The notes under the pieces were generated by a model. It was given only the letters and a program-made list of their open reading frames with translations, was not told the DNA's origin and did not search any database. The position numbers and the translations under genes are program-made. A DNA stretch of 64,000 nucleotides, taken from a bacterium. GTDB lineage: Bacteria; UBA8248. The stretch spans positions 3,552,001 to 3,616,000 of the forward strand of contig OZ241875.1 of the NCBI GenBank assembly GCA_965203325.1. The letters are read 5' to 3'. How positions within the stretch are numbered: the stretch's first letter is position 1; every line of letters starts with the position of its first letter. Shown here piece by piece: positions 14,241 to 21,375 of the stretch.

Positions 14241-15395
14241 ATGAGCACAGACGGAACCGCGCAGGCTGAATACGTGGCCCCCACCTGGGACACGAAGATG
14301 CCCTTGCCGTCCAATCCCGAGACGGGCGAGGACGCGAACGACTACTACATCATCGACTGCGAAACGCACGTGATGCCAGAGGATTACCGGCGCTTCATCA
14401 AGTATTTCGAGGGGACGAAAACCTTCGAGTACGCGCACAAGATGTGCAACCAGTGGCAGTGGATCGACCACAGGAACAACAGGCCGGCGGCCATCCACCC
14501 GGGCATGGACTGGCATATCGACAAGATCATCGGCGACATGAACCGCGCCGGCGTGGACCAGATAGCCCTCATGCGCGAGTCGTTCATCGACACGGCGGGC
14601 GACAGCGCGCCGTTCTCCACGAACCAGCACGTCATCGACGCCATCGAGAAATATCCCGACCGCGTTATCGGCGTCTCGAACGTGGGGCCGTTCTCGAAGC
14701 GCAAGACCAAGGATTTCCTCTGGGAGATGGAATACCTCCACGACAACTACAACTTCAAGTTCACCAAGTTCTATCAGCCCGAGGACTGCCCCATCAACGA
14801 CCGCAGGCTCTGGCCCGCCTATGAGATGTGCCAGGACAAGGGCATCGTGGCCTTCTTCCACACCGGCATCACCATCCGGCTGGGTCCCACGCGCTACACC
14901 CTGCCGATTCTGCTGGACGAGGTGGCATCCGACTTCCCGGACCTCAAAATCGTCGCCTACCACGGCGGCTATCCCTACTGGGAAGACCTCGTCATGTTGA
15001 TGTGGAAACACCCGAACGTGTACGTGAGCTACTCGATCCTGCTGCCCTGGCTCATGCGCGCGCCGCACCGCTTCGCCCACATGGTCGGCACGACGCTGCA
15101 GATCGTCGGCCCCGGCCGATTCGTCTGGGGCAGCGACTGGCCGGCTTCGGACCCCTACCAGTCGGTCGAGGCGGTCCTGAAGCTCCATATCGACGAGGAA
15201 CTGCAGGAGAAGTGGGGTTATCCCGCCATCACGAAAGAGGACAAGGCGGGCTTCCTGGGCACCACGCTCGCGCACCTCGCGGGCATCGACCCGGTGAAGA
15301 ACCACCAGAAATTCCCCGGCATGAACGGTGCGCCGGAAGGGAAGACGCCGGAGGGCGACATCACCCGCGCCATCATGGCGAAGAACGGCAGCTGA
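14241..15395 (+). CDS. Amidohydrolase_2 family protein
   Basis: IIDCETH, FHTG, FPDLKIVAYHGG, VWGSDWP motifs; GGAGG RBS. Confidence 0.88.
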   Translation: MSTDGTAQAEYVAPTWDTKMPLPSNPETGEDANDYYIIDCETHVMPEDYRRFIKYFEGTKTFEYAHKMCNQWQWIDHRNNRPAAIHPGMDWHIDKIIGDMNRAGVDQIALMRESFIDTAGDSAPFSTNQHVIDAIEKYPDRVIGVSNVGPFSKRKTKDFLWEMEYLHDNYNFKFTKFYQPEDCPINDRRLWPAYEMCQDKGIVAFFHTGITIRLGPTRYTLPILLDEVASDFPDLKIVAYHGGYPYWEDLVMLMWKHPNVYVSYSILLPWLMRAPHRFAHMVGTTLQIVGPGRFVWGSDWPASDPYQSVEAVLKLHIDEELQEKWGYPAITKEDKAGFLGTTLAHLAGIDPVKNHQKFPGMNGAPEGKTPEGDITRAIMAKNGS

Positions 15396-15429
15396 TTAGA
15401 AAGAGAAGGGCTTCTCGCCTGAAAGTATG

Positions 15430-15465
15430 AAACCCCGTCCGGGTTCGCCCGGGCGGGGTTTTGTT
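15430..15465 (+). terminator. Intrinsic terminator
   Basis: aaaccccgtccggg-ttcg-cccgggcggggtttt-gtt: UUCG-loop hairpin plus T tract just after the stop. Confidence 0.85.
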
Positions 15466-15666
15466 GTGGAGAAAATCGGGCGGCAACTGTTCGGGGAATG
15501 GATTTTGGGGGGAATCGCATACATGACTCGACCACAGGGGACATTGCATTTGCCCCCTTGTCAGAGTTGTTGAAAAAGCCCTCATCGGGGGACATTGCCT
15601 TTAGCGGGAATGCCGCTTTCGCGCGAGCCCTCGATTTCCCTCGTCGAAAGGCAACCCCCCCTTGTC

Positions 15667-17182
15667 GGGGCTGTTGAAAAACCCCGTTTTGAAGCGGGAT
15701 GTATGGCGGCTCACGCGGCTTGGGAGAGGAAGCCCAATCGGCGCGTGAGGCCGCGATATGCGCTCATTCGGCGTTTCCGGGCGGCGCAGGCTCTCCACAG
15801 AGCGAACAAACGCGCCGCAACAGCGGCGGCGAGCCGCTTGAGGTTCACCGCAGCCGCCGTCAGGTAGGCCTGGATCTTCATGTTCGCAAGACCCCGGCGC
15901 ACCGCCCGCGCCAGTCCGTGCCGACTCTTCGCCTCGCCGTGATAGCCTTCGGAGCGACCCATGTGCCGGCGCCACAGCCGACCCTCCTCCTCCCCACGGC
16001 GCGCGTGGCGACGGCGTGCGCGCAACAGCGCCGGATACTCGTGCGGAACCAGCACCGTCCGGCTCGTGCGGGACTTCGACAGACAATCGGCCTTGAGCGA
16101 GCAACCCGCGCAATCGCGCGTCCTCGATACATAGTAGCGACCCCGCTCCGTCTCCTTCCGGGGACGCAGCGTCTTGCCACCCGGACACTTCACCACCTTG
16201 TGACGCTCGTCGTAGCGGAACAGTTGCAGCGGCACCCGGCTCTGGGTGGGTTCCTTCTTCGCCGGTATCACCGCGTCCACCCCCCGACGCTCCAATGCGC
16301 CGTACACCTTCGAGTACGCATAGCCACTATCCGCCGTCACCACCGCGGGCGCGCGACCCGTGAGCTCGCAAACCGCATCCAGCTGCGGCTCCATCATCTC
16401 CCGCTCGTTCAACGTCCCCGCCGTCACCTCTACGTCGAGGACAACGCCCCGCTCATCGTCCACCACCGCGTGGTGCTTGTAGCTCGGCTCGAACCCCGCC
16501 CGAGCGCTCTTGCGCGCCAGACGCGCGTCGGGGTCCGTTCGGCTCACAGGACCCGAACCCCCGCCACCGCCCTTCTTCCCCATCTCATCCGCCGAGTCGT
16601 TCTCCCGCACCACCTTCTCCGCGTGGCGCTCCGCCAGACTCTCCCAACTCACGTCCGCACGTATCAAAGACGCGTCCATGTGAACCACTTCTCCCTTCGC
16701 CACCTTCGCCTCCACGCAAGCCTGAACCGTGCGCCGAAATATCTCCTTGAACCGCTCCTCCCCCCAGCGCTGACGAATCCGCGTCAGGCTCGAATGATCC
16801 GGCAAATCCTCGTCCAGCCTGTACCCGATGAACCACCGGACCGCCAGATGCGCCTGCGCCTCGCGCAGCAGGCGGCGGTCCTCCGCGTAGCCCAGCAGCA
16901 GGCCCGCCAGCATCAACCGGATCACCACTTCCGGGTCGATCCCCGGTCGACCGTTGTCCGCGCAATAGCACTCCGCCACTTCCTCGCGAAGCCAACTCAA
17001 ATCCAGTACGCGGTCCACCTGGCGCAATATGTGATCTTCGGGAATCAACTTCTCCAGCGGGCCGGCCACGAACAAGTCCATCTGCTCGCGCCTCTTGCGG
17101 TCCAACATCTCCGGAACTCCCATCTCGGGCGAGGGGGAATACATCCATACGCTCACAAAACCAGGGGTTTTTCAACAGGCCC
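15667..17182 (-). mobile_element. IS1182-family insertion sequence, copy 1 (1516 bp)
   Basis: 19-bp TIRs GGGGCTGTTGAAAAACCCC / GGGCCTGTTGAAAAACCCC; 5-bp TSD TTGTC at 15662-15666 and 17183-17187. Confidence 0.92.
15711..17108 (-). CDS. IS1182-family DDE transposase
   Basis: IPEDH.LR, NGRP..DP, PDHSSL.R.RQR (DUF772-like); DDE residues HMDAS, TADSGY, SEGYHGEAK; Cys motif C.GC.LK..C. Confidence 0.92.
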   Translation of the reverse strand: MLDRKRREQMDLFVAGPLEKLIPEDHILRQVDRVLDLSWLREEVAECYCADNGRPGIDPEVVIRLMLAGLLLGYAEDRRLLREAQAHLAVRWFIGYRLDEDLPDHSSLTRIRQRWGEERFKEIFRRTVQACVEAKVAKGEVVHMDASLIRADVSWESLAERHAEKVVRENDSADEMGKKGGGGGSGPVSRTDPDARLARKSARAGFEPSYKHHAVVDDERGVVLDVEVTAGTLNEREMMEPQLDAVCELTGRAPAVVTADSGYAYSKVYGALERRGVDAVIPAKKEPTQSRVPLQLFRYDERHKVVKCPGGKTLRPRKETERGRYYVSRTRDCAGCSLKADCLSKSRTSRTVLVPHEYPALLRARRRHARRGEEEGRLWRRHMGRSEGYHGEAKSRHGLARAVRRGLANMKIQAYLTAAAVNLKRLAAAVAARLFALWRACAARKRRMSAYRGLTRRLGFLSQAA

Positions 17183-17271
17183 TTGTCAGGGGGGTAAGAA
17201 GAAGCAACACCCCGACGAGAGAGGTATCACTCCCCCTTTGCAGAGCAACCAACAATCACTCCCCCCTTGAG

Positions 17272-18793
17272 GGGGCTGTTGAAAAACCCCGTTTTGAAGC
17301 GGGAGGTATGGCGTCTCACGCAGCGGCGGAGAGGAAGCCCGCGAGGTGCGTGAGGCCGCCAGGAACGCGCATTCGGCGTCTCAAGGCGGCGCAGGCCCTC
17401 CACAGAGCGAATAAACGCGCCGCAACAGCGGCGGCGAGCCGCTTGAGGTTCACCGCAGTCGCCGTCAGGTAGGCCTGGATCCTTATGTTCGCAAGACCCC
17501 GGCGCACCGCCCGCGCCAGGCCGTGCCAACTCTTCGCCTCGCCGTGATAGCCCTCCGAGCGACCCATGTGCCGGCGCCACAGCCGACCCTCCTCCTCCCC
17601 ACGGCGCGTGTGGCGACGGCGCGCGCGTAACAGCGCCGGATACTCATGCGGAACCAGCACCGTCCTGCTCGTGCGGGACTTCGACAGACAATCGGCCTTG
17701 AGCGCGCAGCCCGCGCAATCGCGCGTCCTCGATACATAGTAGCGACCCCGCTCCGTCTCCTTCCGGGGGCGCAGCGTCTTGCCCCCCGGACACTTCACCA
17801 CCTTGTGACGCTCATCGTAGCGGAACAGCTGCAACGGCACCCGGCTCTGGGAAGGCTCCTTCTTCGCCGGTATCACCGCGTCCACCCCCCGACGCTCCAA
17901 TGCGCCGTACACCTTCGAGTACGCATAGCCCGAATCCGCCGTCACCACCCCGGGCGCGCGCCCCGTGAGCTCGCAAACCGCATCCAACTGCGGCTCCATC
18001 ATCTCCCGCTCGTTCAACGTCCCCTCCGTCACCGCAACGTCGAGGACAACGCCCCGCTCATCGTCCACCACCGCGTGGTGCTTGTAGCTCGGCTCGAACC
18101 CCGCCCGAGCGCTCTTGCGCGCCAGGCGAGCGTCCGGGTCCGTTCGGCTCACAGACCCCGAACCCCCGCCCCGGCCTTTGCCCTTCTTCTCCGTCTCATC
18201 CTCCGAATCGTTCTCCCGCACCACCTTCTCCGCGTGGCGCTCCGCCAGACTCTCCCAGCTCACGTCCGCACGTATCAAAGAGGCGTCCATGTGAACCACC
18301 TCTCCCGTCGCCACCTTCGCCTCCACGCAAGCCTGAACCGTGCGGCGCAATACCTCCTTGAAGCGCTCCTCCCCCCAGCGCTGGCGAATCCGCGTCAGGC
18401 TCGAATGGTCCGGCAACTCCTCGTCCAGCCTGTACCCGATGAACCACCGGATCGCCAGGTGCGCCTGCGCCTCGCGCAACAGACGCCGGTCGTGGGCGTA
18501 GCCCAGCAGCAGGCCCGCCAGCATCAACCGAACCACCACTTCGGGGTCCAGGCCCGGACGGCCATTGTCCGCGCAATAGCACTCCGCCACTTCCTCGCGA
18601 AGCCAGCTCAAATCCAGTACGCGGTCCACCTGCCGCAATATGTGATCTTCGGGAATCAACTTCTCCAGCGGGCCGGCCACGAACAAGTCCATCTGCTCGC
18701 GCCTCTTGCGATCCAGCATCGAGGGAACTCCCATCTCGGGCGAGTCGGGATAACTCCATACGATCACAAAACCAAGGGTTTTTCAACAGGCCC
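17272..18793 (-). mobile_element. IS1182-family insertion sequence, copy 2 (1522 bp)
   Basis: Near-identical TIRs; 5-bp TSD TTGAG at 17267-17271 and 18794-18798. Confidence 0.92.
17316..18719 (-). CDS. IS1182-family DDE transposase
   Basis: Near-identical to copy 1; intact DDE motifs. Confidence 0.92.
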   Translation of the reverse strand: MLDRKRREQMDLFVAGPLEKLIPEDHILRQVDRVLDLSWLREEVAECYCADNGRPGLDPEVVVRLMLAGLLLGYAHDRRLLREAQAHLAIRWFIGYRLDEELPDHSSLTRIRQRWGEERFKEVLRRTVQACVEAKVATGEVVHMDASLIRADVSWESLAERHAEKVVRENDSEDETEKKGKGRGGGSGSVSRTDPDARLARKSARAGFEPSYKHHAVVDDERGVVLDVAVTEGTLNEREMMEPQLDAVCELTGRAPGVVTADSGYAYSKVYGALERRGVDAVIPAKKEPSQSRVPLQLFRYDERHKVVKCPGGKTLRPRKETERGRYYVSRTRDCAGCALKADCLSKSRTSRTVLVPHEYPALLRARRRHTRRGEEEGRLWRRHMGRSEGYHGEAKSWHGLARAVRRGLANIRIQAYLTATAVNLKRLAAAVAARLFALWRACAALRRRMRVPGGLTHLAGFLSAAA

Positions 18794-18970
18794 TTGAGGG
18801 GGAGTCGGCAAGACGAGGGCAAAGCCCGAAGTCGCGCCGGTGGGGGGAGAATTCCGACTGATAAAAGAGGAATTCCTGCGACCGAGGACAGAAGATTTAC
18901 TACAATAAAAGGCTCCCCCCACCACATCGGCCTTCGCAAAAACCGCTCGGCCTCTGTGACTCCCCCTCAA
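18794..18970. repeat. Inner halves of two inverted REP-like units (CACTCCCCCCTTGAGGGGGAGTC...GGTGGGGGG)
   Basis: ttgagggggagtc...ggtggggggag (18794-18849) faces ctccccccacc...gactccccctcaa (18913-18970); outer halves at 17254-17271 and 20496-20513. Confidence 0.8.
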
Positions 18971-20495
18971 GGGTCTGTTGAAAAACCCTTGGTTTTGTGA
19001 TCGTATGGAGTTATCCCGACTCGCCCGAGATGGGAGTTCCCTTGATGATGGGCAGCAGGAGGCGCGAGCAGCTGGACTTGTTCGTGGCCGGTTCCATGGA
19101 GCAGTTGATTCCCGAAGATCACATATTGCGCCAGGTGAACCGCGTGCTGGATTTGAGCTGGCTTCGCGAGGAGGTGGCGGCGTGCTATTGCGCGGACAAC
19201 GGTCGACCGGGTCTGGACCCCGAGGTGGTGGTTCGGCTGATGCTGGCGGGCCTGCTGCTGGGCTACGCGCAGGACCGCCGCCTGCTTCGCGAGGCGCAGG
19301 CGCATCTGGCGATCCGGTGGTTCATCGGGTACGGGCTGCACGATGAGTTGCCGGATCATTCGAGCCTGACGCGTATCCGCCAGCGGTGGGGGGAGGAGCG
19401 GTTCAAGGAGATATTGCGCCGCACGGTTCAGTCTTGCGTGGAGGCGAAGGTGGCGAAGGGGGAAGTGGTGCACATGGACGCTTCGTTGATACGTGCGGAC
19501 GTGAGTTGGGCGAGTCTGGCGGAGCGCCACGCGGAGAAGGTGGTGCGGGAGAACGACTCGGCGGATGAGACGGAGAAGAAGGGCAAAGGCCGGGGCGGCG
19601 GGGGTTCGGGTCCGGTGAGCCGTACGGACCCGGACGCTCGCCTGGCGCGCAAGAGCGCTCGGGCGGGGTTCGAGCCGAGCTACAAGCACCACGCGGTGGT
19701 GGACGATGAGCGGGGCGTTGTCCTCGACGTTGCGGTGACGGAGGGGACGTTGAACGAGCGGGAGATGATGGAGCCGCAGTTGGATGCGGTTTGCGAGCTC
19801 ACGGGGCGCGCGCCCGGGGTGGTGACGGCGGATTCGGGCTATGCGTACTCGAAGGTGTACGGCGCATTGGAGCGTCGGGGGGTGGACGCGGTGATACCGG
19901 CGAAGAAGGAGCCTTCCCAGAGCCGGGTGCCGTTGCAGCTGTTCCGCTACGATGAGCGTCACAAGGTGGTGAAGTGTCCGGGGGGCAAGACGCTGCGCCC
20001 CCGGAAGGAGACGGAGCGGGGTCGCTACTATGTATCGAGGACGCGCGATTGCGCGGGCTGCGCGCTCAAGGCCGATTGTCTGTCGAAGTCCCGCACGAGC
20101 AGGACGGTGCTGGTTCCGCATGAGTATCCGGCGCTGTTACGCGCGCGCCGTCGCCACACGCGCCGTGGGGAGGAGGAGGGTCGGCTGTGGCGCCGGCACA
20201 TGGGTCGCTCGGAGGGCTACCACGGCGAGGCGAAGAGTTGGCACGGACTGGGGCGGGCGGTGCGCCGGGGCCTTGCGAACATGAGGATCCAGGCCTACCT
20301 GACGGCGACTGCGGTGAACCTCAAGCGGCTCGCCGCCGCTTTTGCGGCGAGTATATTCGCTCTGTGGAGGGCCTGCGCCGCCTTGAGACGCCGAGTGCGC
20401 GTTCCTCTCGGCCTCGCGCGCCGATTGGGCTTCCTATCCCAAGCCGCGTGAGCCGCCATTCAGCCCGCACCAAAACGGGGTTTTTCAACAGCCCC
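18971..20495 (+). mobile_element. IS1182-family insertion sequence, copy 3 (1525 bp)
   Basis: TIRs GGGTCTGTTGAAAAACCC / GGGGCTGTTGAAAAACCCC; 5-bp TSD CTCAA at 18966-18970 and 20496-20500. Confidence 0.92.
19045..20451 (+). CDS. IS1182-family DDE transposase
   Basis: Paralog of copies 1 and 2; intact DDE motifs. Confidence 0.92.
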   Translation: MMGSRRREQLDLFVAGSMEQLIPEDHILRQVNRVLDLSWLREEVAACYCADNGRPGLDPEVVVRLMLAGLLLGYAQDRRLLREAQAHLAIRWFIGYGLHDELPDHSSLTRIRQRWGEERFKEILRRTVQSCVEAKVAKGEVVHMDASLIRADVSWASLAERHAEKVVRENDSADETEKKGKGRGGGGSGPVSRTDPDARLARKSARAGFEPSYKHHAVVDDERGVVLDVAVTEGTLNEREMMEPQLDAVCELTGRAPGVVTADSGYAYSKVYGALERRGVDAVIPAKKEPSQSRVPLQLFRYDERHKVVKCPGGKTLRPRKETERGRYYVSRTRDCAGCALKADCLSKSRTSRTVLVPHEYPALLRARRRHTRRGEEEGRLWRRHMGRSEGYHGEAKSWHGLGRAVRRGLANMRIQAYLTATAVNLKRLAAAFAASIFALWRACAALRRRVRVPLGLARRLGFLSQAA

Positions 20496-20538
20496 CTCAA
20501 GGGGGGAGTGATTACGGACTGGCGCGGTGGTTCTGTGA

Positions 20539-20564
20539 GGACAGGCACGGAGGCCTGTCCCTAC
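20539..20564 (-). repeat. GTAG-family REP
   Basis: ggacaggcacggaggcctgtccctac (reverse complement GTAGGGACAGGCC...). Confidence 0.7.
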
Positions 20565-20622
20565 GGTAAACAATGCGATGATCGGGATGCCCTCCCCGAC
20601 GAGGGACTTCTCCAACACCCCC

Positions 20623-21375
20623 TCACATCTTCCCCATGACGAACTTGATCACCAGGCTCGTGGCGATGAGGAACAGGGCGACCCGGATGAGCCTGAAGAA
20701 AAGCGCCTGGTCGATGTGCTCGCGGACGCGGATGCCCGCCCAGTACCCGACATAGACGGGGATGATCGCCAACAGTGCGTTCGTGAAGCGCGGTTTCGTA
20801 TAAAAGCCCTGGAGCCAAAGGCTCAGAATGATGACGCACATGCCCGTCGAGTTGAACGCGTTCATCAGGAAGATGAACGGGTTTTTCGCCAGCCTGAGCA
20901 TGCTGAAGTAAATGATGTTGATGGCGCCGCTGATGGTCGTCGTCCCGTAGACGAAACCCAGCGTCGCTCCCATGAGGGCGCCCACGATTCTCTGAAAGCC
21001 CGCGCCCAGCTCCTTGAAGAAGCCCAGGCGGCTCTCCACGAGCAGGTAGATATAGGCCATGACCCCCATCATCAGGCGGATGAAGTCGGGGTCACCGAAC
21101 CCCAGGAACCACACGCCCACCGGCATGAACGCCATGGCGACCAGGAGATACAGCCATATCTCCCGGATAGAGCGCCACTCGGAGCGGAGGCGGTAGGTGT
21201 CGGTGAAGTTGGAGATGAGGAGCGGGAGCGCGAGCAGGGTGACGATTTCCTTCGGCGCGATGAAGAGCGCGAGAAGCGGGGCGGCCACCAGCGGCGTGCC
21301 GAAGCCGATGGAGCCCTTCACGAATCCCCCGAAAAAGAGGACGCAGACGACGATGGCGATTTCTATGTCGCTCAT
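20623..21375 (-). CDS. Sulfite exporter TauE/SafE family protein
   Basis: GGFVKGSIGFG.PLVAAPLL N-terminal motif; about 8 TM helices. Confidence 0.85.
   Translation of the reverse strand: MSDIEIAIVVCVLFFGGFVKGSIGFGTPLVAAPLLALFIAPKEIVTLLALPLLISNFTDTYRLRSEWRSIREIWLYLLVAMAFMPVGVWFLGFGDPDFIRLMMGVMAYIYLLVESRLGFFKELGAGFQRIVGALMGATLGFVYGTTTISGAINIIYFSMLRLAKNPFIFLMNAFNSTGMCVIILSLWLQGFYTKPRFTNALLAIIPVYVGYWAGIRVREHIDQALFFRLIRVALFLIATSLVIKFVMGKM

Follow-up and report, generated by a model that had tools for sequence, protein, structure and literature searches.

Among the insertion sequences (ISs) that make up the IS1182 family, the targeting of hairpins has been described for IS1272 and TnSha1 of staphylococci (Furi et al. 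2016, PMC4923244; Wan et al. 2017, PMC5678879). Several independent insertions of IS1272 can fall on one and the same hairpin, and in one branch of the model of Wan et al. (2017), an attack at the edges of the palindrome loop duplicates the loop only. Both papers also cite Siguier et al. (2015) for the targeting of palindromes by some IS1182 members; according to PMC5678879, detailed data on these members are lacking there. Repetitive extragenic palindromic (REP) sequences are targeted by members of the IS3, IS110, IS4, IS256 and IS5 families (Tobes and Pareja 2006, PMC1525189). Among them are IS1397 and ISKpn1 (IS3), IS621, ISPpu9, ISPpu10 and ISPa11 (IS110), and ISRm22 (IS4); the text of that paper does not mention IS1182. 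The present analysis concerns a 64,000-nucleotide stretch of DNA (the window; positions 3,552,001 to 3,616,000 of contig OZ241875.1, assembly GCA_965203325.1) from a bacterium of the lineage UBA8248. As read directly from the sequence, window positions 15654-20513 hold three copies of one IS1182-family insertion sequence. Very probably, its transposase targets a short GC-rich palindrome symmetrically, in either orientation, and duplicates the 5 central bases.

As seen in Table 1, each of the three copies is bracketed by a perfect 5-bp direct repeat, with a C-run arm and a G-run arm of a palindrome on the outside. The terminal inverted repeats of about 19 bp start with GGGSCTGTTGAAAAACC in all three. 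When the IS and one duplicate are removed, a palindrome of C-run, loop and G-run is restored in 3 of 3 copies. The preliminary description of this locus had reported such a restored hairpin, which the present analysis confirms. It had also stated that the 3' end of the transposase gene abuts the C-run/TTG side, and in all three window copies this end indeed lies towards the long C-run and TTG. The sites lie within a variable intergenic stretch between genes that are conserved in five relatives.

Table 1. Features of the IS cluster, with positions counted from the first nucleotide of the window
Feature	Position	Strand	Basis or sequence
Solitary, slightly degenerate IS terminal repeat, preceded by a C-run and TTGTC	15563..15580	+	motif search
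Left arm (C-run) of class B REP-like palindrome split by copy 1	15654..15661		ACCCCCCC
Target-site duplication TTGTC of copy 1, first	15662..15666		sequence
IS1182-family copy 1, 1516 bp, terminal inverted repeats of ~19 bp	15667..17182	-	sequence
Copy 1 transposase open reading frame, 481 aa: DUF772 + DDE_Tnp_1_6 + DDE_Tnp_1	15711..17156	-	Pfam
Target-site duplication TTGTC of copy 1, second	17183..17187		sequence
Right arm (G-run) of palindrome split by copy 1	17188..17195		AGGGGGGT
Left arm of class A REP-like palindrome split by copy 2	17254..17266		sequence
Target-site duplication TTGAG of copy 2, first	17267..17271		sequence
IS1182-family copy 2, 1522 bp	17272..18793	-	sequence
Copy 2 transposase open reading frame, 483 aa	17316..18767	-	reading frame + Pfam
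Target-site duplication TTGAG of copy 2, second	18794..18798		sequence
Right arm of palindrome split by copy 2	18799..18806		sequence
Arm of class A palindrome (inverted relative to copy 2 site) split by copy 3	18957..18965		sequence
Target-site duplication CTCAA of copy 3, first	18966..18970		sequence
IS1182-family copy 3, 1525 bp	18971..20495	+	sequence
Copy 3 transposase open reading frame, 484 aa	18997..20451	+	reading frame, Pfam, NCBIfam
Target-site duplication CTCAA of copy 3, second	20496..20500		sequence
Arm (G-run side) of palindrome split by copy 3	20501..20513		sequence

The element belongs to the IS1182 family. The open reading frame (ORF) of copy 3 scored 350.3 bits with the NCBIfam IS1182 model NF033551 (cut-off 270), and the next-best model, IS5_4, reached 94.7 bits, under its own cut-off. 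In all three window copies, a single ORF carries DUF772 at residues 69-142 and DDE_Tnp_1_6/DDE_Tnp_1 at about 220-445 (Pfam). Elements of this family measure about 1.3-1.95 kb in the ISfinder size range and have terminal inverted repeats; the elements observed here, 1516-1525 bp long and with inverted repeats of about 19 bp, agree with this.

The genome consists of one 4.39-Mb contig with 60% G+C. It contains 16 full-length copies of the IS with 91-100% identity, and the transposase ORF is open and full length in 14 of them; of the other two, one contains two stops and the second is missing its first 60 residues. The ends of each copy were set by the inverted repeat, and the 21-mers of the original sites were restored by script after removal of the IS and one duplicate. 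In 16/16 copies, the insertion lies at the centre of a REP-like palindrome with base-pair precision, and a G-run of at least 4 follows the right-hand 5-mer. Perfect 5-bp duplications are present in 9/16. The remaining 7 comprise four copies with 1-2 extra junction bases or a 1-nt shift, one with an extra T on the right, and two whose flanks come from two different sites. Four genomic copies, copy 2 among them, are identical over their full length and two more differ by one base. The window elements are very probably copies of an active IS1182-family insertion sequence, and recent activity is shown.

The palindromes into which these copies are inserted are also found intact in large numbers. 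The restored 21-mers occur elsewhere in the genome in 102, 43, 19 and 15 exact copies, and in 109, 104, 81 and 18 copies when at most one mismatch is allowed. The 21-mer restored from copies 2 and 3 (class A) accounts for the 102 exact intact copies, and that of copy 1 (class B) for 43 exact copies and 104 at up to one mismatch. Both strands carry about equal numbers of sites at this latter threshold, with 57/52 sites for class A (109), 49/55 for class B (104) and 9/9 for variant A' (18), and the intact sites are embedded in longer mosaic repeat units. The palindromes have GC-rich stems of 8-9 bp and loops of 4-5 nt, with folding energies of -8 to -12 kcal/mol as DNA. They are imperfect palindromes that could fold into stable hairpins, and they are dispersed at high copy number on both strands, as is characteristic of REP sequences. 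Placement of 16/16 copies in about 280 sites of 5 bp within 4.39 Mb is beyond chance.

A further feature of REP sequences is a cognate RAYT (Y1 transposase) that they flank. Two weak matches to Y1_Tnp (RAYT/IS200-like) were observed at genome positions 1659503-1659691 and 1662456-1662713 (27.7 and 24.1 bits, cut-off 23). Both have HUH-like and tyrosine (Y) motifs and one has an in-frame stop. No palindromes were found flanking these two matches, the nearest class A/A' site being 4-7 kb off.

Beyond this genome, close homologues of the transposase were present in 15 of the 41 genomes searched (own genome included), mostly of the same genus. The flanks of all full-length copies from six relatives, with ends defined automatically, were combined with the 16 local copies into a genus set of 90 distinct copies from seven genomes. 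More distant relatives in genome G022 (72-75% identity, 25 copies) were excluded from all counts; their left end was found, and a matching right end was sought in these copies and not found. Perfect 5-bp duplications were seen in 56 of the 90. When runs of at least 4 are required on both sides of the 5-mer (C before, G after), 69 copies qualify, and 72 do so at a threshold of 3. The preliminary description had proposed that a target logo be built from the flanks of genomic copies and homologues, and the logo of the 56 clean sites, in transposase orientation, reads CCCCCC-NTSAN-GGGGGG with the duplicated bases in the middle. Before the duplication, C occupies five positions in 45-54 of 56 sites and the sixth in 38/56. 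Within the duplication, position 2 is T in 44/56, position 3 is C or G in 54/56 and position 4 is A in 45/56; at the six positions after it, G stands in 40-56 of 56 sites. Taken as a whole, this consensus is a palindrome. Additionally, the restored sites fold as DNA with a mean of -7.7 kcal/mol versus -2.7 for 2000 random 29-mers, and 38/56 are more stable than the 1st percentile of these controls. In another bacterial family, more distant relatives (62-64% identity) have ATCAT or ATGAT duplicated in the middle of a different palindrome; the T-S-A core and the dyad are kept there, and the arms have changed.

According to the preliminary description, an IS1182-family element inserts both site-specifically and in a fixed orientation, with a transposase that recognises the imperfect palindrome with polarity. 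The family assignment and the choice of site stand; fixed orientation relative to the loop is very improbable. Orientation was scored by which loop form precedes the transposase start. All three window copies agree, which has a probability of 0.25 under random orientation, and so do 5 of the 6 identical or near-identical recent copies. In the whole genome, the left junctions divide 12:4 and the right junctions 12:4 (p=0.077), and the copies with clean duplications 7:2 (p=0.18). These biases are not significant, however, and the 4/16 left and 4/16 right junctions of opposite orientation contradict a fixed polarity by their existence. Moreover, by hand tally the 52 clean REP-loop insertions of the genus set split 28:24 (p=0.68), with 18:17 in class A and 10:7 in class B. 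Both orientations duplicate the same 5 bases, apart from one copy in this genome that is shifted by 2 nt. Since the same 5 bp are duplicated both ways and the logo is symmetric, the target appears to be read as a symmetric site. Random flanks or random orientation had been named beforehand as outcomes that would count against the proposal: the flanks are not random, all 16 lying in palindromes, and the orientation is not fixed.

The flanking 5-mers are mutually reverse-complementary, or come from different palindrome classes, in one or two copies here and in about 10 copies of the relatives. Reverse-complementary 5-mers were observed at genome position 924276 and in the related copies L037, L038, L062, L073, L075 and L076. 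Such mismatched or inverted 5-mers were presumably left by recombination between oppositely oriented IS copies. L073 and L075 each have two arms of a single type, an arrangement that recombination between ISs does not fully explain.

A second alternative is that no target is chosen at all: the palindrome halves would belong to the element as long terminal repeats, or would accompany it through gene conversion or homologous recombination between repeats. Some support for this can be found among solitary motifs resembling the IS ends, 31/447 of which are preceded by a C-run and TTGAG and 11/447 by a C-run and CTCAA, and in some short inverted-repeat pairs a palindrome arm extends the terminal repeat. 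Nevertheless, this alternative is highly improbable. The four identical copies occupy four different sites, with the duplications CCTTG, GTCAA, CTCAA and CTCAA. Copy 3 lies in a class A site, and the one other genomic copy that has its exact sequence lies in a class B site. The flanking 5-mers are direct repeats whereas the arms are inverted, and the restored sites occur intact 15-102 times without the IS. The palindromes are therefore targets, not ends of the IS. Arms of 8-13 bp are also too short for efficient homologous recombination.

Random insertion followed by selection, which would leave only the copies in neutral intergenic repeats, is hardly credible. The sites do lie in variable intergenic DNA between conserved genes, but selection does not have the power to impose single-base precision. 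The 52 clean REP-loop insertions in seven genomes hit the same 5 bases in each class, the only exception being the 2-nt shift, and about 280 sites of 5 bp are a tiny share of the non-coding DNA in 4.39 Mb. An assembly artefact, which the preliminary description had named as a further possible objection, hardly deserves more credence as the origin of the three-copy cluster: repeats are error-prone in assemblies and public short-read contigs break at the IS ends, but the copies differ pairwise at 88-124 positions, each with unique flanks and a duplication of its own. In addition, the genome was assembled as a single contig, and both it and its relatives contain comparable groups of two or three copies.

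Several points weigh against symmetric targeting of the palindrome. Among the 56 clean insertions, 4 lie outside the CTCAA/TTGAG or GACAA/GTCAA/TTGTC loops (TTACA, AAGGC, ATGAT and TCGTC), with TCGTC still between a C-run and a G-run. Under the fixed end definition, 34/90 copies lack a perfect duplication, and these include left ends with an extra A as well as mismatched or inverted 5-mers. Also, copies in related genomes cannot be counted as independent events. Two relatives with 58-61% identity, on plasmids of Bradyrhizobium and Sinorhizobium, show 5-bp duplications and no evident palindrome, which implies that the wider clade does not seek palindromes throughout. A comparison with two close relatives, G012 and G010, yielded no orthologous empty site; their intergenic region (480-520 bp) holds other repeats and no alignable copy of the three sites. 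Parts of the stretch are contained in 20 public sequencing runs, four of which were used for contigs; over 14300-17271, which spans one IS copy, none of the contigs from these four connected the two sides of the IS, and no record had 31 letters on both sides of a junction. These short-read contigs break at the IS ends, and their loose ends are the flanks of other IS copies in both orientations. Finally, no transposition was observed.

The two plasmid relatives, L148 (Bradyrhizobium plasmid) and L149 (Sinorhizobium meliloti plasmid), are found at one and the same point of similar coding sequences, relative to which they face opposite ways; their duplications are CGCGT and ACCCG. The coding sequence reads ...HFMRN and may be another transposase gene. 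An extra A, or two in one copy, stands between the duplication and the left IS end in about 10 copies from four genomes (genome positions 1782082, 3034268 and 1862985; L032, L056, L068 and L082-L084), and the duplication in these copies always ends in A. The extra base may be a donor-flank base carried over by imprecise cleavage.

We infer that the transposase itself makes the target choice. In the mechanism proposed here, a transposase multimer holding the two near-identical ends would bind the palindromic site. Each end would then be joined to one of the two strands, at cuts staggered by 5 bp about the dyad axis, after which repair would duplicate the 5-base loop; this very outcome forms one branch of the model of Wan et al. 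(2017) for the family. The symmetry of the target, and likewise of the two IS ends, would lead to entry in either orientation. With about 280 REP-like sites in mosaic intergenic repeats, nearly every insertion would land in one of them, and intergenic stretches of several modules would gather several copies, as in the window. In genome G012 (C1:164770-169635) and at another locus of the genome studied here (3032541-3035792), two or three IS copies are likewise separated by a few hundred bp, which indicates that repeat-rich intergenic stretches collect several insertions. It was suggested in the preliminary description that non-coding repeats act as safe harbours for the IS, and this is a reasonable inference.

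As to what is recognised at the site, we lean slightly towards a transposase that reads the double-stranded palindromic sequence. Reading of an extruded hairpin or cruciform is a possible alternative to which less weight is given. One variant site has a substituted left arm and can pair over only about 4 bp (about -2.3 kcal/mol). This weak-hairpin variant is used at 3/16 left junctions here and repeatedly in relatives, which favours the reading of sequence and speaks against an obligatory stable hairpin. The relatives that keep the T-S-A core and the dyad with changed arms, and the plasmid relatives that have no evident palindrome, also bear on this question.

It is also conceivable, though rather unlikely, that the palindrome is chosen as a mimic of the element's own abutted ends and not merely as a hairpin. 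With GGGG... and ...CCCC as the ends of the IS, the target CCCC-N5-GGGG resembles a right-end/left-end junction with a 5-bp spacer. In genomes G012, G007, G013 and G020, insertions lie between or beside solitary end motifs, and the GGGG/CCCC edges of paired motifs form target-like sites.

One of these solitary motifs lies at 15563-15580 in the window (Table 1). The 18-bp end motif, with the consensus GGGG-Y-TGTTGAAAAA-S-CC, has 479 genomic matches at up to 3 mismatches, 447 of them outside the IS copies, versus 16 for the reversed motif. There are 97 inverted motif pairs 82-658 bp apart; 5 of them have a perfect 5-bp duplication, where about 0.1 would be expected, and 69 have none. A blastn-short search with the outer 90 bp of each end found no IS similarity beyond the end motif, since all 32 hits were inside the 16 IS copies. 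The motifs were considered as simple internal-deletion derivatives of the IS, and this was ruled out by the sharing of only the repeat of about 18 bp. They are probably an old population resembling miniature inverted-repeat transposable elements (MITE-like), which would use the same ends.

Two other features border the cluster. At 15430-15462, directly after the upstream gene, a GC-rich stem is followed by a T-run, and the cluster of ISs and repeats starts downstream of it; this looks like a putative intrinsic terminator of that gene. Just past copy 3, at 20535-20625, there is another dispersed repeat, of about 90 bp; five related genomes each contain dozens of sequences that match it at 80-97% identity.

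Compared with IS1272, the window element is of the same family and shares the targeting of inverted repeats or hairpins in both orientations. However, IS1272 makes no target duplication and removes part or all of the stem-loop, while the window element makes a clean 5-bp duplication and keeps both arms. Targets of IS1272 also share little primary sequence, in contrast to the clear sequence consensus found here. The likeness to the IS1182 members cited from Siguier et al. (2015) is insertion into palindromic sequences, at the level of a general statement. With the REP-targeting ISs of PMC1525189, the element shares insertion at a fixed point of the REP, often the dyad axis, restoration of the REP when the IS and one duplicate are removed, and association of nearly all genomic copies with REPs; those ISs have transposases of other families. 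Members of IS110 further differ in their non-DDE-type recombinase with a guide RNA, their single orientation and the lack of a duplication. A palindromic consensus and sequences like its own ends are also preferred by the DDE transposase of IS30. That element is of a different family and has a different target.

The behaviour thus combines two known things, palindrome targeting by IS1182 elements and REP targeting by other families. The preliminary description overrated its novelty, as palindrome or hairpin targeting has already been reported for the IS1182 family (PMC4923244 and PMC5678879, both citing Siguier et al. 2015). In the literature searched, no account of REPs as targets of this family was found, and insertion into REP loops with a clean 5-bp duplication may not yet have been published for this IS1182 subgroup. 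On a bold and rather unlikely reading, the 'loop-only duplication' branch of structure-dependent transposition, which Wan et al. (2017) proposed, would here be well sampled in nature for the first time.

No new kind of mobile element and no new targeting principle are revealed by these findings. They provide a large natural data set (90 copies, 56 clean events, seven genomes) for a thinly documented behaviour of the IS1182 family, and the use of the weak-hairpin variant is a concrete handle on the choice between a sequence and a structure reading. If the mimicry of own ends were true, the IS family and the mosaic of MITE-like and REP sequences would themselves create and extend the sites on which the IS lands, and thereby a self-reinforcing niche for nesting that the transposase reads through its end-binding surface. 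Symmetric targeting of REP-like palindromes explains the pile-up of ISs in repeat-rich intergenic regions, and the breaks in short-read assemblies, in these uncultured and apparently sponge-associated bacteria.

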